Assembly (NCBI GenBank): GCA_903891165.1
Contig: CAITDR010000124.1
Span: 2,088-66,087 of the forward strand
From: an uncultured Pseudomonadota bacterium
GTDB taxonomy: Bacteria > Myxococcota_A > UBA796 > SXON01
Direction of reading: 5' to 3'
DNA length: 64,000 bases
In this document: positions 52,770-64,000 of the stretch, piece after piece
How the letters are laid out: each line of letters starts with the position of its first letter
Numbering within the stretch: position 1 is the first letter of the stretch
Notes under the pieces: model-generated
What the model saw: only the letters and a program-made list of their open reading frames with translations
What the model was told of the DNA's origin: nothing
Database searches by the model: none
Position numbers and translations under genes: made by a program

Positions 52770-53393
52770 ATGCCCACGCTACGCTGGATTCGTGCGCCCG
52801 CCTCCGCCGCCACCACCAACGGACAGCCCATCGCGACGGGCGAAGAGAACCGTGCGGCCCTTCACCGGCTTCAAGCCCTGCTGAAGAAGCCTACCCTGAT
52901 CGTGGTACCCGGCTTTACCCCTGTAAAAACTACGATACCCATCCAGCTACACGAGGTGTCGCAGCGGCGGGTCCGGACTGCGTTGGAGCAGGCCCCAAAA
53001 AACCGGCTTTTTCTGTTCAGTGGCGGAAATGTACACCCGGAGGGCACACCCTACAACGAAGCCTACGAGATGAAACAATTTGCGATGCGGAGCCTGGAGG
53101 TGCCCGAGGAGGAGATTGTCATCGACCCCTACGCCCGGCACTCCACGACAAACCTACGCAATGCCGGGCGTTTTATGAAGGTTTTTGGCTTCAAAAAAGC
53201 CACCATCGTCACCAGTTTTGATCAGGCCTTTTATTATGGCTTCCAGATCATCAGCACCTTCGAGCTACGCTGTCGCAGCGAGCTGGGCTACAGCCTGGGC
53301 GAGATGAAGGCGCTGGACCTGGATCTCTCGCGACTCTCCTTCAGTCCTTCCGATGACGTGGATCGCCCCGGAGACGATCCACTGGACCCCTGA
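52770..53393 (+). CDS. YdcF/DUF218 family protein
   Basis: FSGG.VHP, NEA..M, ARHSTTNLRN, IVTS. Confidence 0.8.
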   Translation: MPTLRWIRAPASAATTNGQPIATGEENRAALHRLQALLKKPTLIVVPGFTPVKTTIPIQLHEVSQRRVRTALEQAPKNRLFLFSGGNVHPEGTPYNEAYEMKQFAMRSLEVPEEEIVIDPYARHSTTNLRNAGRFMKVFGFKKATIVTSFDQAFYYGFQIISTFELRCRSELGYSLGEMKALDLDLSRLSFSPSDDVDRPGDDPLDP

Positions 53394-53410
53394 GACGTTA
53401 AGCTTCCCCC

Positions 53411-54445
53411 ATGGCATTGGAGCTTTCCGGAGTGGCGGTCACCGCAGGCAGGGCCACCCTGTTGCAGGGTCTGGACCTGAGCCTGGGACCGGGCCAGCTG
53501 GTGGGCCTGATCGGCCCCTCCGGCGCCGGAAAAAGCACGTTAATCAAGGTACTACTCGGCATCCGTGAGCCCTCATCGGGCACGGTGCGGCTGAACGGGC
53601 AGCCGGTGCAGCAGGCCGGACCGGTGGGCTATGTGCCCCAGGACGATGCCCTCCACGGCAGTCTTCGCGTACAAGAAGCTCTGCTTTTTGCTGCTGAGCT
53701 GCGCATGCCCACCTGGACCGATGCCGCCCGCCGCTCCCGCGTGGAGCAGGTGATCCAGCAGGTAGGGCTGGAGGAACGCCAGAAGGTCGCGATCCATCGC
53801 CTCTCCGGTGGCCAGCGTAAACGGGTGAGTGTGGCCATGGAGCTGCTGACCAGCCCCCCGGTCCTGATCCTGGACGAGCCCACCTCCGGCCTGGATCCAG
53901 GCATGGAAGCCAAGATGATGGAGCTTTTTCAGGCCGTGGCCCAGGCGGGCCGTATCGTCCTGGTCTCCACCCACGCCATGCAGAGTCTGGACCGCTGCTC
54001 CCGCCTCCTCATCCTCATGCAAGGTCGTATGATTTTTGGGGCTGCGCCCGATCAAGCGCCCGACTGGTTCGGCACCCGTAGCCTCAATGGCATTTTTGAT
54101 CAGCTCCCCACACAGCGACCCGAAACATGGGCCCAAAAATGGGCCACCGGCCGCACCCTCCTGGCCCAAAGCACCCCCGTCCAACTTTCCGCCCACTTAC
54201 GCGTGGCTGGCCTCCCCGAACACCCAAGTGATACACGGCAGGGTGATACACGGCAGGGTGATACACGACAGAGTGATACACGACAGGGTGATACACGACA
54301 GGGTGATACACGACAGGGTGATACATCCACCCCATCATCTGCTGATTCCCTGAAGCCCCCCAAAAATCTGCACCCGGCGCTTCGGGATCCAGCCCTGCAA
54401 AAACAGCTTGAAGAGCTGAAAGCCGCCCGCGAGAAAAAGGGATGA
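53411..54445 (+). CDS. ABC transporter ATP-binding protein (ABCG-like) with a repeat-containing tail
   Basis: GPSGAGKST, YVPQDD, LSGGQRKR, LDEPTSGLD, H-loop STH. Confidence 0.93.
   Translation: MALELSGVAVTAGRATLLQGLDLSLGPGQLVGLIGPSGAGKSTLIKVLLGIREPSSGTVRLNGQPVQQAGPVGYVPQDDALHGSLRVQEALLFAAELRMPTWTDAARRSRVEQVIQQVGLEERQKVAIHRLSGGQRKRVSVAMELLTSPPVLILDEPTSGLDPGMEAKMMELFQAVAQAGRIVLVSTHAMQSLDRCSRLLILMQGRMIFGAAPDQAPDWFGTRSLNGIFDQLPTQRPETWAQKWATGRTLLAQSTPVQLSAHLRVAGLPEHPSDTRQGDTRQGDTRQSDTRQGDTRQGDTRQGDTSTPSSADSLKPPKNLHPALRDPALQKQLEELKAAREKKG
54228..54330 (+). repeat. 15-bp tandem repeat GTGATACACGRCAGR, six full copies plus a partial one
   Basis: Read directly; in frame, encodes (DTRQG)n. Confidence 0.95.
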
Positions 54446-55218
54446 GCGAGGTGCCGGCAAAAACAGCGGAAAGGAGCCGCCCGCCGGAGAGGCCGGTTCT
54501 GCGACAGGTGGATGTATTGACCCGGCGGTATTGGGCCTGTACCCTTGGAGATCCTGTCACATTGCTGCTGTTGCTCGCACAGGCGCCCTTCATCGGCTAC
54601 CTGTGTACCCTGGTGTGGGGATCCATCGAAAAAGATACTCCCTCCCTATATTTTGTGCTGTGTCTCTCCTCGGTGTGGTTCGGATGTATCAACGCATGCC
54701 GGGAGGTGGTGAAGGAGAGGGCGATCCTGGAGCGGGAGCGTTTTTTCGGGCTGTCGCTGGGCGCCTATGTGCAGTCCAAAGGCAGGGTATTGGCGGGTAT
54801 CGGTGCGGTACAGGTGCTGATGCTGCTGATGGCGGTGGAGTGGAAGATAGCATTGAACGGGAATTTTTGGCTACAGCTCGTGGCCCTGTGGGGGGCGAGT
54901 CTGTGTGGGACGGGGCTGGGGCTGCTGGTGTCGGCCTTTTCCAAAAGCCAGGAGAGGGCGGTTGGCGCCATTCCCCTGCTCATCCTCCCTCAGATCCTGT
55001 TTTCCGAGTTTTCTATCCCCAAAGAATCCTTTTCGGATACCGTACAGTGGGCCGAGCGGGCGATGCCCGTCCACTGGGCCTTCGAGATCTTCCAGCAGGC
55101 CGCCTCCACCGAGCCCGAGGGATGGACCCTGTTGGGGGCACTATGTGTGCTGCCGCTCTACGCAAGCGGGCTGGGCCTCCTGACCGTCGCCGCCCTGTTA
55201 CCCCGGAGAGAGCTTTGA
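54442..55218 (+). CDS. ABC-2 type permease
   Basis: LLAQAP, WFGCINACREVVKERAI..RER, LPQILFS. Confidence 0.9.
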   Translation: MSEVPAKTAERSRPPERPVLRQVDVLTRRYWACTLGDPVTLLLLLAQAPFIGYLCTLVWGSIEKDTPSLYFVLCLSSVWFGCINACREVVKERAILERERFFGLSLGAYVQSKGRVLAGIGAVQVLMLLMAVEWKIALNGNFWLQLVALWGASLCGTGLGLLVSAFSKSQERAVGAIPLLILPQILFSEFSIPKESFSDTVQWAERAMPVHWAFEIFQQAASTEPEGWTLLGALCVLPLYASGLGLLTVAALLPRREL

Positions 55219-55706
55219 AAAATTTTGCCTACCTCCTACTTTTTCTGATCCTCGCCGCCGGAGTATACGCGGGGGGTGCCCACCTATCCGGAGGTGCCTG
55301 GCCCACCTTCGGGCTGCCGCTGGGCGGGGCGATGGGCGAGCTGCGGCAGATGTGCCAGTCCTACTGGGAAGACATCCAGTTCAAGGATTTTAAACATGCC
55401 GCACAATACCATGATCCGAGCGTGCAGGACAGCGTAGACATCCCCTACCTCCTGGAACGGATCTTCCTTCAAAAACCTGAATTTTTGGACCTGATGGAAT
55501 ACGAAGTCGTTTTTGTAGATATCGACTCCAGCGGGCTGCGCGGACGGGCAAGGACCCGGGTACGGGTCAAGGATCTGGTGAAGGAGAAGATCCGCGATCA
55601 GGAGGTGATGCTGTACTTTAAGAGAAAGAGTAGCTCCGACCCATGGTATATGGATCTGGAGACCAGCCTGCGGGCCATTGAGGGAGAAGAGGGAAAGAAG
55701 CACTGA
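55215..55706 (+). CDS. Hypothetical exported protein
   Basis: TTG start overlaps the permease stop; N-terminal signal or TM segment. Confidence 0.65.
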   Translation: MKNFAYLLLFLILAAGVYAGGAHLSGGAWPTFGLPLGGAMGELRQMCQSYWEDIQFKDFKHAAQYHDPSVQDSVDIPYLLERIFLQKPEFLDLMEYEVVFVDIDSSGLRGRARTRVRVKDLVKEKIRDQEVMLYFKRKSSSDPWYMDLETSLRAIEGEEGKKH

Positions 55707-55800
55707 AGCCGAAGGAGGGGCACGACCCGGCCGGCAGGATCAAGATGTCGCGGCCCCGACGAACATACACCGTGCTACCTTCCAAAAAAAGGAGCTGACC

Positions 55801-56859
55801 ATGCTGAGCCTCTGCCTTACCCTGTTTGCGGCTGCACAGACCCCCAACACCGGCGGGCTGGAGGTGGTGGGCGAGGGGCGGAGTTTAAGGTTGGTGGACG
55901 CCACCGGACACGCACTCACCAACGAGCAGGCCCTACGAGCGCTGGGCCGCGACGATCTGGCGGAGGAGGCCCGGCGGCACCGGAACCTGATCAAGGCAGG
56001 CTCGATTGCGCTCTGGAGTGGCGGGGGGCTACTGCTGTTGGGGGGCAACAGCTTGAACAGTGCGTCCAGCCTTACGGTTCCGGCCACCAACAACGACTTC
56101 AACCCGACGGGACTGGTGGTGATGGGGGCGGGGGTAGCTGCCGCAGGCGGTGGCTTTGCCCTGTACTTCGCCGACCCGAAAAAGCCGCTGACTGCCTGGA
56201 TTGATCCGGTGGAGATCAACAGCATCATGGCCCAGCAACAAAGGCCCGTGGTCGGCGGCAACCCGCCGCTGCCCGGCGACGGAAGTGCTCCCCCTCTGGC
56301 GGGGGAGGCCCCCAACCCCTATCGACCGGTGGGCGAAGGCAGCCTGTGGATCGACGAGGAGGGCCAGCTGCGGATGGGGAGCCGGCGGCTGGATGCCGAG
56401 TCGGCGGCCCGGTTGTTCAACGACGATATTGTTGCCGAGCGCTACGAAGAGACCCGCACCCGCGACAAGGCCCTGTGGATTCCGGTCACGGCCGTGGGGG
56501 GCGCCATGGCGGTGGGTGGCTCCGCCACCGCACTGGTCGGGCTGGTTCTGCTGATCGGCGGGGGAGTGGGGCTCGACAATGACATGGCCACCCGCGGGAC
56601 AGTGCTGTTTTTGGGCGGGGGACTGGCCAGCATGGTGGGTCTCGGGGGTGTCGCCGCCGGAACCACTGGACTGATCGTGACCGCGGTAAAACACAATCGG
56701 GTGGACTACTACTACAGCCCGGATGAACTGCGCAACCAAGTGGATGGCTACAACAAAAATGCGCCCCTGCCGCCCGGGGTGATGCCGCTGCCTGAAGCAA
56801 AGCTGCAGGTCATGCCGATGCTCGGTTTTGGCATCGTGGGTGTACAGGGAACATTTTGA
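55801..56859 (+). CDS. Hypothetical envelope protein with an internal duplication
   Basis: AAGGAG Shine-Dalgarno; two Gly-rich hydrophobic hairpin modules; C-terminal GIVGVQGTF. Confidence 0.7.
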   Translation: MLSLCLTLFAAAQTPNTGGLEVVGEGRSLRLVDATGHALTNEQALRALGRDDLAEEARRHRNLIKAGSIALWSGGGLLLLGGNSLNSASSLTVPATNNDFNPTGLVVMGAGVAAAGGGFALYFADPKKPLTAWIDPVEINSIMAQQQRPVVGGNPPLPGDGSAPPLAGEAPNPYRPVGEGSLWIDEEGQLRMGSRRLDAESAARLFNDDIVAERYEETRTRDKALWIPVTAVGGAMAVGGSATALVGLVLLIGGGVGLDNDMATRGTVLFLGGGLASMVGLGGVAAGTTGLIVTAVKHNRVDYYYSPDELRNQVDGYNKNAPLPPGVMPLPEAKLQVMPMLGFGIVGVQGTF

Positions 56860-56893
56860 GCGAACAATCCCATAGAAGAAGGAAGGCATAAAA

Positions 56894-57739
56894 ATGTTGA
56901 CACGGCAAATGGGTCCCTGGACGGTTTCGGCGCTGGGCCTTGGGGGAATGCCCTTATCTCTCAGAAGGCGGCCTTCGGAAGCGGATGCAATCAACCTGAT
57001 CCATGCCGCGTTGGACGGGGGAATCACACTGATTGATACCGCCGATGTCTACTGTATCGACCACCGAGACATCGGGCACAACGAGCGGCTGATCAGCAAG
57101 GCCCTTCGCGATCGGAGCGATCGTACAAAAATCCTGGTAGCGACGAAGGGCGGACTGGAGCGCCCCAACGGGGCATGGCCCAGCAATGGGCGTCCCGAGC
57201 ACATGATCGCCGCCTGTGACGCCAGCTTGCGTGCGCTCGGGGTAGAGAAAATTGCGCTCTACCAGATCCATGCCCCGGATGACGAAGTGCCCTGGGCCGA
57301 CACCGTGGGCGCCGTCGCGCGGCTGAGGGAAGCCGGAAAGATCCAGGAAGTGGGCCTGTCCAACGTGAGTGTGGAGCAGATCGAGGAGGCCCGGGCCATT
57401 GTGCCCATCGTGTCGGTGCAGAACCGCTGCCATTTTCTGGATCGGAGCGGCTGGGAGGACGGGGTGATCGACCACTGCACCCGCGAAAACATCTGCTTTT
57501 TGGCCTATTCTCCGGTGGGCGGCAGCAGTGACTATGCGGATATCGGCGCCGACCCGCAGCTTATTGCGGTCGCCCGTGCACACGGTGCAAGTCCCTACGA
57601 GGTGGCCCTGGCTTGGCTCCTTACAAAAAGTCCGGTGATCTTGCCCATCCCCGGCGCCAGCCGGATGAGCAGCCTGCAGTCGATTTTGCGGGCGGGGGAG
57701 CTTTTGTTGGGGGATGGGGAAGTGGCGGGGTTGGGGTGA
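56894..57739 (+). CDS. Aldo/keto reductase
   Basis: LGLGGM, IDTADVY, VATKGG, LYQIH, GLSN, AYSPVG, PIPGAS. Confidence 0.95.
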   Translation: MLTRQMGPWTVSALGLGGMPLSLRRRPSEADAINLIHAALDGGITLIDTADVYCIDHRDIGHNERLISKALRDRSDRTKILVATKGGLERPNGAWPSNGRPEHMIAACDASLRALGVEKIALYQIHAPDDEVPWADTVGAVARLREAGKIQEVGLSNVSVEQIEEARAIVPIVSVQNRCHFLDRSGWEDGVIDHCTRENICFLAYSPVGGSSDYADIGADPQLIAVARAHGASPYEVALAWLLTKSPVILPIPGASRMSSLQSILRAGELLLGDGEVAGLG

Positions 57740-57759: not shown

Positions 57760-57832
57760 CGATACATTTTTATAATGTATCACCAAAATCAGCCTAATCC
57801 CTACATACCTGTGATACATCAAAAATGTATCA
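57760..57832. repeat. Bipartite palindromic site, left copy
   Basis: CGATACAT-N7-ATGTATCA, 29 bp, TGATACAT-N5-ATGTATCA. Confidence 0.88.
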
Positions 57833-58750
57833 TATCCCTGCAGAGGTTTCCTGCTGCTCCCCCTCCGACGAGTGGATCTTAAAAGATCCGCAGGAGGACG
57901 GACGATAGCCCTGAGGTGCGGTCGCTGGCAATCGCCCTCGCATCCATGCAAGTTCACGGAGTAGAATCCGTCGGATACTGGCAGCCGAGGTAGATAGTTT
58001 CACCTGCTGGCCTGCCATCTGAAGCACCACGGCCCCTTCGGCCGGTACCAGCTCCAAGTGCAGTCCGACCCGAGGGGCCTGCGCGGCAGCAACCCGACGC
58101 ACTTCCGCCATCAGGATTTTCTCCAGCGAGCGGAACTGGTGGCGCGGTCGGTAGGAACCGGAAAACTTGGGAACCCGCGTCGGAAGTGGTCCCCGAACAT
58201 AGGGGTACAGGTCCGCAGCGTGTTGACTCTGCACCGGCAGGACCGGAAATCCAGACTTGGTGACTCTAACAATCTCTTCGCGCGGAACATCCGCATTTTC
58301 AGGGCAAAGCAACACACCTTGCCATCGAATCTTGATTTTCTCCGGTAGGACAGCAAATTCGGACCGAAGTCGATCACAGCCCGCCTTCAGCTGATCCAGA
58401 CCCGTTTCCAGGTTCTTGCGTTTGGTGCCCTTCAGCTCCACCAGGGTGCAATACCACGTTGCATCGTGCCCCTCAGTCCGAAGTGCAGCCCAGCGTTTTC
58501 CACAGGGGATAAAGAGCACCAGATAGTCCGGCTTTTTCACACCCTCACCACCGATCAGGGGCCTTGAACCACCCCAGTCCAGGTTAAAAATAAGGCAGAT
58601 TCCTTCGTCCTGGATAGCCTCATGAACATAAAAACGGACTCCACTCTCCGGCGGTACACTCCTGGCCCCCCGGACCATCCCTCCGACAAAAAGGTTCTCC
58701 AAAAAGCTGCTGCGCGGGTCCGCCTGACGGCGTTCAAGCCGGGGTGGCAC
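57830..58750 (-). CDS. Putative PD-(D/E)xK nuclease-fold protein
   Basis: KKPDYLVL...LVELKG...GLDQL; GTG start at 58750 with a GAGGA Shine-Dalgarno inferred (ORF is open to 58804). Confidence 0.6.
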   Translation of the reverse strand: MPPRLERRQADPRSSFLENLFVGGMVRGARSVPPESGVRFYVHEAIQDEGICLIFNLDWGGSRPLIGGEGVKKPDYLVLFIPCGKRWAALRTEGHDATWYCTLVELKGTKRKNLETGLDQLKAGCDRLRSEFAVLPEKIKIRWQGVLLCPENADVPREEIVRVTKSGFPVLPVQSQHAADLYPYVRGPLPTRVPKFSGSYRPRHQFRSLEKILMAEVRRVAAAQAPRVGLHLELVPAEGAVVLQMAGQQVKLSTSAASIRRILLRELAWMRGRLPATAPQGYRPSSCGSFKIHSSEGEQQETSAGI

Positions 58751-60074
58751 GATCTTCCTCTTCACGAATGGCAAAGTAGATGTTCTGCAGATCGCCACTC
58801 GCATCGCTCAGCGTGGGGGATCGAACACCCCAGCCCTCCTCCCACAGATCCCGCAGCTTCCCCTCCTCCATCTGCCAGGCACCCACTTCCTCTCTCTTCA
58901 GAAAGGCGGGCGGATCCTTCAGGAACAGGTGGGAGGCCTGCCGCTTCCCCAGCTCCGTGTCGGATGTATCACCCGCAACCAGATTGTTCAGGTGGGCCAT
59001 CAGGTAGGGACTATGCGTGGTCAGCAGCACTTTTTTCCCGAGACGCACCAGGATGGCCAGTGTCTCCAGCAGCTTCGCCTGCGTCAGGGGGTGCAGGTTC
59101 AGCTCGGGCTCGTCGATGATCAGGAGCTGACCCGGATGCCCGTGCCGCATCCACAAGAGTAATGGCGCAAGCTGCTTCACGGCGGAAGATGCGTTGTAGA
59201 GGTCCAGTGGAGTGGCGCCGGGAATTGTGAGCTTCATCTCTCGCGCCGAGGGACCCAGGGACTCCCAGACCAGGCGGTGTTCGCCCATTGCGACCGCTTC
59301 CAACTGGGTTGCCAGGACGGAGACAGCGTCTTCGGGGCGAACCTTGTCGTCCAACTCGCAGAGCGCCAGAAAATCCAGGAAGTCCTCCACCGGCTGGGGA
59401 AAACGCTGCTCTCCCAGCTCCCGATAGAGCTGTTCCTGGCGGGAGAGCTGGGATGGCCCCCCCCGCTCTCTGAATAAAACCGCCTGCCGACGAACATCCA
59501 GAAGCATCTTCAGCCGCCGCTGGGACAACATTTTGTATGTTAGAACTAGACTGTTCCGTTCAGCGGGAAGTGCGAACGGCATCGGAAACAAGGACTGAGC
59601 CGCCCGATTGAGCCCGGGCCCCAAGGCCTCCAGAAGCTGCGATAGCGGAACCTCCTTTTCCGGGCCACGTTGGATCCCCGGCAAAATCCAACCAGCCTCC
59701 GTGTATCTGGCGCCGGGGATTCCGCTGATGATCGCGGCATGCAAATCCCCAGGCTCCAAAGTGAAATCCAGGATTGCCCTGTTGGCTCGGTCGGAGCCAT
59801 CCTGAAAGAACACAGGTAGCTGCTCCGCTATATTTCTGCACTGGTACCTTAACCGCTCCTCAAACTCTGCCTCAAACCGAGCAAGATGACCTAATACAAA
59901 AAGTTCTTCTTGCCGCAGTCTAATTTGAAATTCAGTTCCAACTCCCAGAAGTGCATACACCGCATAGGCCAGCCAGGTCTTCCCCGCGTGGTTCGGCCCC
60001 AAAATGGCCGTGAACGGCCGGAGCGGCAACTCCACATCTGCCAGGGGCCCCAGGTTCTGGATACGGATCTTCAA
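58734..60074 (-). CDS. ABC-type (AAA_15/AAA_21, AbiEii-like) ATPase
   Basis: IQNLGP, GPNHAGKT, LPAER, ASSAVKQ signature, IIDEPELNLHP, LLTTHSPY; TTG start with GGAG inferred. Confidence 0.88.
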   Translation of the reverse strand: MKIRIQNLGPLADVELPLRPFTAILGPNHAGKTWLAYAVYALLGVGTEFQIRLRQEELFVLGHLARFEAEFEERLRYQCRNIAEQLPVFFQDGSDRANRAILDFTLEPGDLHAAIISGIPGARYTEAGWILPGIQRGPEKEVPLSQLLEALGPGLNRAAQSLFPMPFALPAERNSLVLTYKMLSQRRLKMLLDVRRQAVLFRERGGPSQLSRQEQLYRELGEQRFPQPVEDFLDFLALCELDDKVRPEDAVSVLATQLEAVAMGEHRLVWESLGPSAREMKLTIPGATPLDLYNASSAVKQLAPLLLWMRHGHPGQLLIIDEPELNLHPLTQAKLLETLAILVRLGKKVLLTTHSPYLMAHLNNLVAGDTSDTELGKRQASHLFLKDPPAFLKREEVGAWQMEEGKLRDLWEEGWGVRSPTLSDASGDLQNIYFAIREEEDRATPA

Positions 60075-60190
60075 GCGTTCTCCAAGAGATTTTCTATCCG
60101 GGGCTGGCCCCACCTGCAACCGCAGCCCCGCCCGGAGCTGGCTTGGCCCATGACGTCACCGTCTGCACTCTCTGCAGAAACCTTGATCCG

Positions 60191-60273
60191 TGACACATCC
60201 ACTCCATGTATCACTAAAACAACCTTCCCCTCATCACTCCCATGATACATCCAAAAAGTATCACCATGTATCA
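60191..60273. repeat. Bipartite palindromic site, right copy, plus an extra half-site
   Basis: TGACACAT-N7-ATGTATCA, 29 bp, TGATACAT-N5-AAGTATCA, then ATGTATCA at 60266. Confidence 0.88.
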
Positions 60274-60290
60274 AATCCGCCGCCTCCCCC

Positions 60291-60494
60291 CTACCGCCGC
60301 AACCGCACCACCACCGGCAGCGCGGCCGGCACCAGGTTCGCCACCACGGCCACACCCACCCGCTCCCAAGCCTCGACATCCGCCTGGATCGCCTCTTCCG
60401 ACCACGGAAGCAGGCTGAGGGCCAGCCCAGAAGCGCTGATCAGCCCGAGCACGGCAACACTGGTAAAGATCAGGTCCAAGGTCAGAAAGTCCAT
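60291..60494 (-). CDS. Small membrane protein (67 aa)
   Basis: GGAGGAG Shine-Dalgarno; hydrophobic N-terminal helix. Confidence 0.6.
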   Translation of the reverse strand: MDFLTLDLIFTSVAVLGLISASGLALSLLPWSEEAIQADVEAWERVGVAVVANLVPAALPVVVRLRR

Positions 60495-60655
60495 GATTTT
60501 TCTCCTCCACACGCGAGGCAGGTTACCAGGGCTCCCGGCCAGCGAGAGCCCCTTGCGTTGAACGTGTTTTCAGGTTAGCTGAACACCCGACAGGCTGCAA
60601 GTCTTTTCAGGTCAACACCCCCAAAAATTTCCATAGTCGAGGCAGATGAGCAGAT

Positions 60656-61633
60656 ATGGACGAAAAGCAGTTGAACAAAGCCCAGAAGTTCGTGCGGATT
60701 TTGGAGCTGATTCAGCGCCCCGGTGGGGTCGCGGCGCAAGAGCTGATCGATCGTTTTGAGGTAGATTCCCGCACTCTTCGCCGCTATTTCTCCGATCTCA
60801 AGGAGATGGGCGTGCCCCTGAAGGAGGAGTCCGGCTCCGGCGAGCGCCTCCTTGCGGTGGATCCCACCTACGCCCGTACCGGCGTCCATCTGACCCTGGC
60901 CGAAGTGCTCTCTCTCCACTTTGGCCGCACCCTTTTTACCTTCCTGGATGGCACCTCCTTCGCCTCGGAGATGGATGGCGCGATTGAGCGCCTCACCCCG
61001 GCGATCAGCCGCTTCACCCAGGACATCACCCGCGACCTGGATCGCAAGTTTATGGCCGTGGGTGAACACGCCAAGGACTACACGGGGGAAGGGGACCTCC
61101 TGGACGAGATCGTCAGCTCGCTTTTGTACAACAACCCCGCCGATGCCGAATACCGTCGTATACGCTCGGTGTCGAAGTTCTACAGGCTGGAGCCTCTGAC
61201 TCTGGCCACCTATCGGCAGGGACTCTACCTTTTTGCCCGTGACCTGGGTGAGCAGAAGGTGAAGTGTTTTGCGGTGGAGCGCTTCGTCCGCTACTCCCGC
61301 CTCCGTCGCGAGCGTTTTGACTACCCGGACTACTACGACCCCCACGACGAAACTGCCAGCGCCTTCGGAATTACCGGCGGCCCCCCTGAAGATGTGACGG
61401 CCGTCTTCACCCCCACCGTCGCGCCCTATGTGCGCGAGCGCCAGTGGCATCGTACCCAGCGTCTCGAAGTACAGGAAGATGGTGGCATTCGCCTCTGGCT
61501 GAAGGTCTCCGTCTCCCCCGAATTGAAGGAGTGGCTCCTTGGTTTTGGGCCGGAGGCCAAAGTGGAGTCCCCGCCCTCCCTGGTGGAGTGGGTACGCGAC
61601 GCCCATCGTGCGGCCTTGGACCGCTACAAATGA
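60656..61633 (+). CDS. HTH-WYL-WCX transcriptional regulator (PafB/PafC-like)
   Basis: RTLRRYFSDL wHTH, LEPLTL..GLYLFA, FAVERF, RERQWH..Q, WLLGFG...V.SP. Confidence 0.92.
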   Translation: MDEKQLNKAQKFVRILELIQRPGGVAAQELIDRFEVDSRTLRRYFSDLKEMGVPLKEESGSGERLLAVDPTYARTGVHLTLAEVLSLHFGRTLFTFLDGTSFASEMDGAIERLTPAISRFTQDITRDLDRKFMAVGEHAKDYTGEGDLLDEIVSSLLYNNPADAEYRRIRSVSKFYRLEPLTLATYRQGLYLFARDLGEQKVKCFAVERFVRYSRLRRERFDYPDYYDPHDETASAFGITGGPPEDVTAVFTPTVAPYVRERQWHRTQRLEVQEDGGIRLWLKVSVSPELKEWLLGFGPEAKVESPPSLVEWVRDAHRAALDRYK

Positions 61634-62382
61634 AGATTCCCGAGCGCGATGTCCTTCCCACACTGCTGCTCCCCGAAGATCCCAGCGCCCAAGATGAGTC
61701 GCTTCTTCCTCCTCTGACCCAGAAGGAAGCCCGCGTCTTCCATGCACGTCTCGCGCCCTGTCTCTCCGGGAAGCTCCCCTGGGATCCTGAGCTTCTGCAG
61801 CTTGCGGAGCAGCTACGCCTGAACCAGCCTTTTGGATCGCTCCCCCCTCCTCCTCTCCTGGAAATTCCGCTTTCGGACGAGCTTCTCTCCGATCTCTGCG
61901 AGGACTACAATCCGGACGCGGGGGTGATGGGCGAACGTATCACCGGGGATGCCTACGCCCCCTTTGATAGCCGTGTCGGCGCTGCACTTCTGTTTGTCGC
62001 CACCCTCTGGCGTGGCCAACGGGGCGTGGATTGTTGGGCTCAGGAAGCGGGAGATCCGGTGCTGAAACGTTCGGTGCATGCCCTGGATCGCAGCCCGCCC
62101 TGGCTCTACTCCGAGAATCGCCCGCTTGCCTGGGGGGAGCCCGCCACGGCCGATCTCTGGGTGGGACGCTTGAGCCGTGTGGGAGAGGGCTTCCGACGGA
62201 TCACCGCCTGGGAACTCCCGGATAGTCTGCCTCTTGAAAAAATGTATCGCAGACTACAAGGCGAACTGTGGAGCTTCCGCCTGTGGCATCCCGGAGCTTC
62301 TCTATCCGAGCTGCTCCGCCTCCGTCCGGAGCTGGTCTACCGTAGTGCCCTGGAGCTGGCCCGCCGTCATGGGCCCCGATGA
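61630..62382 (+). CDS. Hypothetical protein
   Basis: 250-aa ORF ATGA-coupled to the WYL gene. Confidence 0.65.
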   Translation: MKIPERDVLPTLLLPEDPSAQDESLLPPLTQKEARVFHARLAPCLSGKLPWDPELLQLAEQLRLNQPFGSLPPPPLLEIPLSDELLSDLCEDYNPDAGVMGERITGDAYAPFDSRVGAALLFVATLWRGQRGVDCWAQEAGDPVLKRSVHALDRSPPWLYSENRPLAWGEPATADLWVGRLSRVGEGFRRITAWELPDSLPLEKMYRRLQGELWSFRLWHPGASLSELLRLRPELVYRSALELARRHGPR

Positions 62383-62460
62383 GGACCGCCGTGGAAGGGC
62401 ATCGCACCGGGCTTGCCGATGGGGCGCTGCCGGTGTACCGTCTCTGACCTGAGGATTCCG

Positions 62461-62865
62461 ATGTTGTTCTGGTTGTTGGCCTGTGGTGGTCCCCCCGTCG
62501 AGCTGGAATTCAACCCCGATCCTCTGGACTTCGGCGAGGTGCCCTACACCTCGGACATGCCCGAAGGCGGTTTTGCGCAGAAGGAGCTTTCCATCACCAA
62601 TACTGGCGAGGGCGAGTTCAACCTGAGCCTCGCGGCCCACGACGAAGCCTGGTTCTGTGTGGAGGGTATCCCGGACACAAATGTGGTCACCGATCTGGGC
62701 CTTCTGAATCCCGGCTCCACCTACCTGCTCCAGGTGGGGCTTTGTGACCATGCCCCCGGCACCTTTGACTCGGACCAGGAGCTGGAGCTGGCCTTCCTCA
62801 CCGATGGGGATCCCGTGCGTTTTGCCCTAAAGGTACTGGTCCATCCGATGCTGGTGGTGGAGTAG
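62461..62865 (+). CDS. Small lipoprotein with an Ig-like (ASH-type) domain
   Basis: LLAC lipobox, P.PLDFGEV, ITNTG, LNPG. Confidence 0.7.
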   Translation: MLFWLLACGGPPVELEFNPDPLDFGEVPYTSDMPEGGFAQKELSITNTGEGEFNLSLAAHDEAWFCVEGIPDTNVVTDLGLLNPGSTYLLQVGLCDHAPGTFDSDQELELAFLTDGDPVRFALKVLVHPMLVVE

Positions 62866-62868
62866 CCC

Positions 62869-63291
62869 TCAGCCCGGCAGCTTCCCCTCCACCATCCGGA
62901 AGATCCCCATTCCCGCGAGCATCACGGCCACAAAAATCACCGCGGGGGTTCCCATACCGACCAGCGAGGTCACCGCTGGACCCGGGCAAAAGCCGGCGAT
63001 GCCCCAACCCACGCCGAACAACACCGCACCGACGATAAGGCGCCAGTCGAGATCCGTGCGCGTCGGAAGCTGAAAACGTCCTCCAAAGAAGGGTTCCTTC
63101 CGACCAAGCACTAGTCTATAGACGATGGTATTCACGCCGATCGCACCCACCATCACAAAGGCGAGGCTCGGGTCCCAATTCCCGAAGAAGTCCAGGAAGC
63201 CGATGACCTTGTGCGGCTGGGTCATCCCGGCGACGGCGAGGCCCACCGAAAAGAGCAGACCGGCAAGACCGGCAACAAGATCCTGTCTCAT
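62869..63291 (-). CDS. YeeE/YedE family sulfur-compound transporter subunit
   Basis: [31 protein letters not shown]. Confidence 0.9.
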
Positions 63292-63719
63292 ACGTCTCCC
63301 ATCAGCAGCCTGGTCACGACGACCGTCGCCGCACCCGCCGCGATAAAAGTGATGGTAGAAACCAGCGAACGTACGGACAGCCGGCTGATTCCGCAGACCC
63401 CATGTCCGCTGGTGCAGCCACTGCCCAGCCGCGTCCCAAAGCCCACCAACAGCCCGGCCACCACCAGCAAGGCCGGGGAACGCACCAGCTCCGACTGAAA
63501 GGCTTCCGGAGTGGCCATCCACATGCCCACCCCTCCAAAGAGCAGGCCGCCCACAAAGAAGACCCGCCACCGCGCGTCACCGGGGGTAGGGGCCAGCAGC
63601 GCACCGACAATGCCGCTGATCCCAGCGATCCGCCCGTTGAAGGCCAACATCAGCGATGTGGCCAGTCCGATGATCAGCCCGCCGATCAGGGCGGGAACAG
63701 GTGTGAAGTTTTCCATCAT
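63288..63719 (-). CDS. YeeE/YedE family sulfur-compound transporter subunit
   Basis: [25 protein letters not shown]. Confidence 0.92.
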
Positions 63720-63725
63720 CCCGTC

Positions 63726-64000
63726 CTAAAGCTGTTTGAATGCCATATATGCTGCCATTCCCAGAACAAAGATCCCAAAGGCGCGCCGGAGCTGCTCCTG
63801 CGGCATCGCCTTGGAAAGTGCGCCGCCGATGACGGAGCCCACCACCGCCCCGCCGCATAGCTCCGCCGCCAGCCCATAGTCTACCTGCACGTGGGTCATA
63901 TGCCCGATAAGACCCGACAGAGACTGCAGAGTAATCACCAGAAGAGAGCTGCCCACCGCTTTGCGCATGGGCAGTCCCCCCAAGAGCGTCAGCGCCGGTA
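63726..64000 (-). CDS. TauE/SafE sulfite exporter family, 3' part
   Basis: PAL..LGGLPMRKAVGSSL, LRRAFGIFV; start lies outside the window. Confidence 0.85.
   Translation of the reverse strand, partial: PALTLLGGLPMRKAVGSSLLVITLQSLSGLIGHMTHVQVDYGLAAELCGGAVVGSVIGGALSKAMPQEQLRRAFGIFVLGMAAYMAFKQL

Follow-up and report, generated by a model that had tools for sequence, protein, structure and literature searches.

A genus-restricted family of palindromes at gene ends, found on both sides of a putative ATPase-nuclease gene pair in an uncultured bacterium

Two sites of the same layout stand on either side of a pair of genes in a 64,000-nucleotide stretch of an uncultured bacterium placed in Myxococcota_A (GenBank assembly GCA_903891165.1, contig CAITDR010000124.1, positions 2,088 to 66,087 of the forward strand; this whole stretch is called the window below). 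The locus raises the question of whether such sites belong to a machine that moves defence genes. The initial annotation of the window had read them in that way, as parts of a site-specific system that captures or excises defence cassettes. The sites are here found to be members of a family of palindromes that is restricted to one genus among the genomes searched, is placed mostly at the 3' ends of genes and is associated with the gain and loss of DNA. The explanation preferred here, and held with about evenly divided confidence, is that the family is recognised by a protein, punctuates gene ends and marks slots that are prone to recombination, the defence pair being a passenger in one of them.

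The two sites in the window are real and lie far beyond chance. The left site (57760-57832) consists of a palindrome with a 7-bp spacer, CGATACAT-N7-ATGTATCA at 57760-57782, a 29-bp linker and a palindrome with a 5-bp spacer, TGATACAT-N5-ATGTATCA at 57812-57832. The right site has TGACACAT-N7-ATGTATCA at 60191-60213, again 29 bp, and TGATACAT-N5-AAGTATCA at 60243-60263. It is followed closely by an additional ATGTATCA arm at 60266-60273, which gives a feature of 60191-60273. The shared layout of 8-N7-8, 29 bp and 8-N5-8, 73 bp in each site, had been reported in the initial annotation and was confirmed base by base, with one mismatch in three of the eight arms. The arm 8-mer is present in ten copies in the window where 0.42 are expected (at most two in 100 shuffles), and seven of these copies fall within the two sites. 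The exact palindrome, with any spacer of 4-8 bp, occurs once and is expected not at all.

The sites bracket two open reading frames on the minus strand, as had also been described. One encodes an ATPase (58734-60119, 461 amino acids) and the other a partner protein (57830-58804, 324 amino acids). The left site sits between convergent gene ends: an aldo/keto reductase gene stops at 57739, and the final three bases of the site are the stop codon of the partner gene. The right site precedes the ATPase start by 72 bp and follows by 18 bp the stop of an open reading frame of 74 amino acids.

The whole assembly (7.05 Mb, 711 contigs, 63% GC) contains the arm 8-mer in 497 copies, about 56 being expected from composition. 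Palindromes with no more than two mismatches number 135, and their spacers range from 4 to 8 bp, with N6 in 84, N7 in 27 and N5 in 19. The 84 N6 sites gave the extended arm consensus tttGG-TGATACAT-N6-ATGTATCA-CCaaa, in which the outer extension is weak. The linkers of the two window sites start with CCAAAA and CTAAAA, and this CYAAAA motif is explained by the extended consensus. Fourteen pairs of palindromes are 50-52 bp apart and thereby have the doublet layout of the window sites, and a core motif is common to many of the doublet linkers, in either orientation. The linker starts with CNAAA on one strand only in eight doublets. Among these eight, the second spacer is no longer than the first in seven, and a minus-strand gene stops no more than about 30 bp from the second palindrome in six; the doublet thus has the look of a polar composite.

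Of the 135 palindromes, 26 are within predicted genes and 109 are intergenic, the latter at 87 loci (65 single and 22 double). Six apparent palindromes with a period of 201 bp (contig C270, 10253-11282) were rejected as a coding artefact, being part of a 67-amino-acid repeat, DCDDTSxDVSP, of MopE-motif proteins. The same artefact is found on contig C178 of the sister species and inflates naive counts of sites; the largest cluster of proteins beside sites is this MopE-repeat family, whose ...DDTSxDVS... coding repeat mimics the palindrome. There is no enrichment of sites near contig ends (18 of 87 loci, compared with 20% of the genome). A text search of the literature for both arm words gave no related element among the matches listed.

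The placement of the sites follows the ends of genes. Convergent gaps make up 36 of the 87 site loci but only 498 of 2821 background gaps, and divergent gaps hold 14 of the loci. The median distance from a site to an adjacent 3' gene end is 21 bp, with 80 of 107 such ends within 60 bp; for adjacent 5' ends the median is 97.5 bp, with 14 of 62 within 60 bp. At 28 loci the outer TGA of the arm is itself the stop codon of a gene, and at five of them this is so on both sides. Defence cassettes have no special claim on the sites, as had first been supposed: most of the 87 intergenic loci adjoin conserved core genes and are kept in place in the sister species.

The family is restricted to the genus among the genomes searched. 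In a set of 31 genomes the exact N6 palindrome was found 42 times in this genome and 40 times in the sister species, the only other species of the genus examined. Four other genera had 5, 2, 1 and 1 matches, mostly of the coding-motif form, and 25 genomes had none. The reversed control pattern was absent from all 31 genomes.

Within the genus the positions of the sites are conserved. Alignment of 427 kb of the sister species around its sites to this genome placed 33 of its sites in aligned blocks; 31 of these have a site at the same place here, and for the other two that place has a variant form. The arms of 41 orthologous site pairs are identical at 625 of 656 positions, a value that is inflated, both members of a pair having been found by their arms, so that the positional test is the fairer one. 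In the 32 pairs whose spacers have the same length, 101 of 193 spacer positions are identical, and the identity of the flanks is about 80%. The description of conserved arms and free spacers, first given for the two window sites, thus applies to orthologous sites of two species. Variants in which both arms are changed are compensatory in none of six cases here and in one of three in the sister species. Because arms change without compensation, selection acts on arm sequence and not on structure, and this points to recognition of each arm by a protein.

The edges of gained and lost DNA coincide with sites at this locus and at others. Synteny between the window and the sister species covers 53061-57739 and 60277-63998. 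Between the two blocks there are 2537 bp here and 254 bp in the sister species, where the cassette is absent. A palindrome overlapping the reductase stop codon is found at the left end of the 254-bp stretch, and an orthologue of the rightmost palindrome with its extra arm at the right end. A single site had been expected at the empty allele; instead there are two sites with filler between them. The filler has no similarity to the cassette or to the rest of this genome, and such fillers in the sister species were rejected as deletion scars on account of their lack of similarity to the cassette. A defence island of 9.4 kb (C214:5932-15112) corresponds in the same way to about 440 bp between two sites in the sister species. 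It is composed of three site-delimited units, the first with PDDEXK_2 and NACHT-FGE, the second with NACHT-FGE and TIR, and the third with PDDEXK_2 alone.

Smaller differences between the two genomes involve the sites themselves. One doublet of the sister species is precisely absent here, between the TGA and TCA of convergent genes, and one doublet here is a singlet there. Three places have a single site in one genome and site, insert and site in the other. The predicted contrast between paired sites around variable DNA and single sites at empty loci was thus seen in three cases, but the inserts are copies of a non-coding repeat with their own linker and palindrome and not gene cassettes. Among 19 indels of at least 300 bp, taken from regions chosen around sites and with edges classified by hand, 11 have a site at an edge and 6 at both edges, compared with a site at 36 of 249 gene junctions (binomial p 0.004 for any edge and about 2e-6 for both edges). 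That the sites might prove to be REP-like repeats (REP, repetitive extragenic palindrome) unrelated to gain and loss had been named initially as an outcome that would speak against a mobility system. The first half of this applies, the sites being REP-like, but a statistical link with gain and loss exists.

The non-coding repeat found in these inserts is a mosaic of about 250-400 nt that looks highly structured, and 32 copies or fragments are present in the genome (C5:412-780, C594:10023-10543, C427:308-539, C599:398-633 and about 28 more). It is often found at contig ends, and about half of the copies abut palindromes. A search with the repeat gave 26 matches here and 21 in the sister species, and the 29 other relatives had none; no Rfam family matched it. 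The arm motif is also found in tandem direct arrays with periods of 7, 8 or 9 bp, with 12 matches on 10 contigs (C203:176-260, C133:138-195, C427:1-80, C599:692-745, C657:5007-5114, C171, C481, C610, C663 and C705). Several of these arrays adjoin the non-coding repeat, and one array of the sister species coincides with a break in synteny.

Low-depth Logan contigs of four lake or freshwater runs from three studies contain the cassette and its flanks in pieces. The circle of about 2.43 kb that was predicted initially, or an excision joint, was not found in them; rare forms do not show up in contigs. In run X2 one contig agrees with the window from 60277 to the right, and its preceding 17 letters are unlike the window; this loose end could possibly be a third allele at the right edge.

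The preferred explanation can be put as follows. Each element consists of 8-bp core arms, weakly extended to 13 bp, around a free spacer of 5-7 bp, and the elements occur singly or as polar doublets with a linker of about 29 bp; they would work like REP/BIME or dRS3/NIME repeats. They stand just after the stop codons of transcription units with their arms kept by selection, and each arm would be recognised by a sequence-specific DNA-binding protein, possibly a recombinase. The sites would then delimit slots where DNA is gained, lost or replaced. Recombination at or between sites may be site-specific, or it may be homologous exchange through 32-73 bp of portable homology. The ATPase and its PD-(D/E)XK-like partner would be a horizontally acquired passenger in one such slot.

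Several points weigh against this explanation. The gene positions come from a crude gene caller written for this analysis, and the choice of the indel regions and the inflation of arm identity described above must be counted here as well. Eight of the 19 indels have no site, and at several inserts a lone site has no counterpart in the other genome. The variation of the spacer from 5 to 7 bp suits a hairpin more than it suits a rigid dimer or a classical tyrosine-recombinase core. No linked recombinase or arm-binding protein was identified in the two assemblies of the genus, which are 84% and 93% complete.

The search for an acting enzyme covered several recombinase and transposase families. 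The absence of a recombinase from the window, stated in the initial annotation, was borne out, with no match to PF00589, PF00239, PF01797, PF01548 or PF07282 on its contig. The genome has five tyrosine (PF00589) and two serine recombinase loci, and it has two Xer-like genes. None of the recombinase loci has arms nearby and they were rejected as the acting enzyme; a recombinase gene carrying or adjoining a site, which had been predicted, was not found. The Y1 transposase or RAYT (PF01797) gave no match in the assemblies of this genome and of the sister species and is present in 12 of the 31 genomes searched. IS110 and TnpB were likewise found in neither assembly, and all three were rejected for this reason. 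Three copies of a PDDEXK_2 'transposase' adjoin sites, but the family is also found in relatives that have no sites, and it was rejected too. Phages were rejected as carriers of the sites: 42 viral contigs matched, with GC of 16-52% and none like this genome, which fits chance.

These results bear directly on a dedicated site-specific cassette system of the integron or pdif kind, in which a polar doublet at the 3' end of each unit would be used by a recombinase in trans to build the slots. Such a system is doubtful, although it would account for the spacer order in seven of the eight CNAAA doublets with the minus-strand stop near the second palindrome in six, for the three places where an insert brings its own linker and palindrome, for the six indels with sites at both edges, and for the doublet that is precisely present or absent between two stop codons. 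Arms of up to 13 bp around 6 bp also resemble simple tyrosine-recombinase sites. However, no recombinase is associated with the sites, no joint or circle was seen in the contigs of the four runs (where rare forms are invisible), and no cassette was seen to recur in a second site context. At both gene-cassette slots the 'empty' allele has two sites and unique filler, most sites have conserved core genes beside them, and the doublets of C631 and other contigs stand next to genes whose order is the same in the two species. The spacers differ in sequence and in length, and classical strand exchange is not known to tolerate this. What stands of the mobile-cassette reading is that the edges of presence and absence coincide with sites; the missing recombinase and the eight indels without a site speak against the rest. 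A fuller version would have cassettes exchanged by a trans-acting recombinase in a freshwater, probably myxococcal genus, attC-like polar doublets of 32-bp palindromes shuffling anti-phage cassettes and the repeat of about 300 nt among some 90 landing sites. The enzyme would be of a kind missed by current models, or the host Xer pair. We regard this version as unlikely.

The bias to 3' ends and convergent gaps would also be expected if the palindromes acted in RNA, as hairpins that end or stabilise transcripts and travel with their units, so that indels of operons look bounded by sites. The loops are free in length and sequence, every inserted unit ends in a site, and each palindrome is predicted to form its own hairpin, with a z-score of -5.0 for the left site and -2.7 to -2.9 for the right. 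In minimum-energy and centroid predictions for both strands the doublet, as in the left site, folds as two separate local hairpins. But the stems are AT-rich and weak in a genome of 63% GC, and the flanks are T-rich on the 5' side and A-rich on the 3' side without a U-tract, the reverse of an intrinsic terminator; a scan found neither an intrinsic terminator nor a sigma-70-like promoter at the sites. Stop codons are inside the stems at 28 loci, 14 loci are in divergent gaps, the arm sequence is kept without compensatory change, and the arm is also found in tandem arrays with periods of 7-9 bp, all of which makes an RNA role distinctly unlikely. The multi-copy, lineage-specific character of the family, the doublet present or absent at one locus and the doublet matched by a singlet at another, and the association with a second, non-coding repeat family of the same genus would suit a selfish repeat of the REPIN or MITE kind that a transposase has spread and that is of no function to the host. 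This is improbable, as a Y1 transposase was found in neither genome of the genus, the positions are almost fully conserved between species at about 80% flank identity, and junctions at base level show no target-site duplication. Least credible of all is a role as operators, through which a transcription factor would control the cassette. In favour are the palindromic form of the sites, the position of the right doublet 72-154 bp ahead of the ATPase start and the presence of a gene for a WYL-type regulator nearby. Against this, most sites are found at 3' ends, an adjacent 5' end lies within 60 bp in just 14 of 62 cases, both genes next to the left site have it on their downstream side, the sites contain no sigma-70-like promoter, and the 87 loci are beside unrelated genes.

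Comparison with known systems places the sites, as an analogue and not a member, closest to the dRS3/NIME repeats of Neisseria, which are the nearest published description found. In the passages of Bentley et al. (2007, PMC1797815) that deal with these repeats, dRS3 is given as ATTCCC-N8-GGGAAT, 20-bp inverted repeats with a free centre that flank families of short repeats. The same passages describe syntenic positions within the genus, propose the repeats as substrates of a recombinase or of homologous recombination, and state that arrays of this type had not been seen outside Neisseria (PMC1797815). Measured against those passages, both families have inverted repeats with a free centre, 6-N8-6 there and 8-N6-8 here, and both are intergenic, genus-specific, syntenic with variable copy number, located beside variable genes and flanking short repeat units. 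The organisation found here likewise includes linker families, repeat units between sites, synteny and doublets alternating with singlets. The differences are that the dRS3 sequence is not matched here, arms and spacing both differing, and that the phyla are unrelated. About 90 loci are found here compared with many hundreds there, and the DNA between sites here includes entire gene cassettes and a structured repeat of about 300 nt. No counterpart of the IS110-type enzyme that acts on dRS3 was found.

The likeness to the REP, BIME and REPIN elements of Proteobacteria is in the many extragenic palindromes located mostly at gene 3' ends, in the singlets and doublets with defined linkers and in the restriction to a lineage; the first two of these were found directly in this genome. 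No RAYT was found here, in contrast to those elements, the stems are AT-rich in a genome of 63% GC, and the arms are kept without compensation and have stop codons inside them.

The statement that the motif is neither dif nor attC held, since the attC and Xer-site features that were tested are lacking. Integron attC sites share with the doublets two simple sites with unequal spacers, a variable middle and a position at the 3' end of a unit, often overlapping a stop codon. No integron integrase with attI was found, the five PF00589 loci being neither on the window's contig nor near arms, and there is no one-way cassette array here. The core consensus of attC, R''/R', is RYYYAAC / GTTRRRY, whereas the arms here are TGATACAT / ATGTATCA. 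The predicted fold here is two local hairpins, not one long bulged hairpin with extrahelical bases. The site of a pdif/Xer module is 28 bp long and has a XerC arm and a different XerD arm on either side of a 6-bp centre. Passenger genes bounded by short sites with a 6-bp centre, and a recombinase that would act in trans, are the points of likeness. The arms here are mutually identical, forming a perfect palindrome and not a XerC/XerD pair, the spacer length varies, and the sites are chromosomal and conserved in place. A search with a dif consensus found no dif-like site.

The ATPase of the cassette (58734-60119, minus strand) is of the ABC/OLD type, with matches to AAA_21 and AAA_15 (Pfam, 5.5e-19 and 2.2e-18), and is like PD-T4-4_A (PADLOC, 1.4e-39). 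The partner gene (57830-58804, minus strand) encodes a candidate PD-(D/E)XK nuclease and probably starts near 58723, giving about 297 amino acids, as judged from relatives. Its protein has no match in Pfam, PADLOC (E<=0.01) or NCBIfam. Five relatives were found, and PDY...E-x-K (D66, E96, K98), which we take to be the signature of PD-(D/E)XK nucleases, is invariant in the six aligned sequences. The AlphaFold2 model of the partner is weak (mean pLDDT 57), and the Foldseek rows of highest probability are FokI, PaqCI and Card1, nucleases of the PD-(D/E)XK-type fold, none of them significant. The name 'ATPase-nuclease pair' is thus reasonable but unproven. PD-T4-4 resembles the cassette in its ATPase and in having two genes with a nuclease-like partner, and differs in that the partner here lacks a PADLOC match at the same threshold.

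The two genes form a module of wide distribution, which has entered a slot specific to the host. A metagenome scan with the partner alignment gave 42 loci, spanning GC of 27-66% where the module is present, and the ATPase adjoins the partner gene in 38 of the 42. The same scan with the single partner protein as query gave no matches, and the genome contig collection gave one distant match only as a relative of the cassette. No site palindromes were found around the 38 metagenome loci. Because the pair occurs there without palindromes, the sites belong to the host genus. One JGI contig of 4034 bp appears to carry a homologue of the partner (76% identity) together with a homologue of the reductase (94% identity). 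The cassette probably occupies the same locus in a third lineage, where it has diverged further than the flank.

The aldo/keto reductase on the left (56894-57739, plus strand) is conserved in the sister species, where synteny stops at its stop codon, and its named homologues are from Myxococcota with about 60% identity, which gives a hint of the phylum. The open reading frame of 74 amino acids on the right (60291-60512, minus strand) has no family match, and synteny with the sister species restarts at about 60277. Next to the slot is a gene for an HTH-WYL-WCX regulator (60656-61633, plus strand; Pfam WCX 9.2e-19, HTH_11 and WYL), also conserved in the sister species. Such regulators often adjoin defence systems.

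The palindrome family would be an analogue of dRS3/NIME or of REP in a distant lineage. Its features are unusually clean, with arms conserved between species, stop codons within arms and polar doublets, and its sites are measurably linked to the gain and loss of defence genes. It would make the seeding of defence islands at fixed chromosomal slots open to study, with a 32-bp bait and with filled and unfilled slots in two genomes. If a recombinase is found, the family would be a new cassette platform; if not, it would show how repeats of the host may serve as portable homology.

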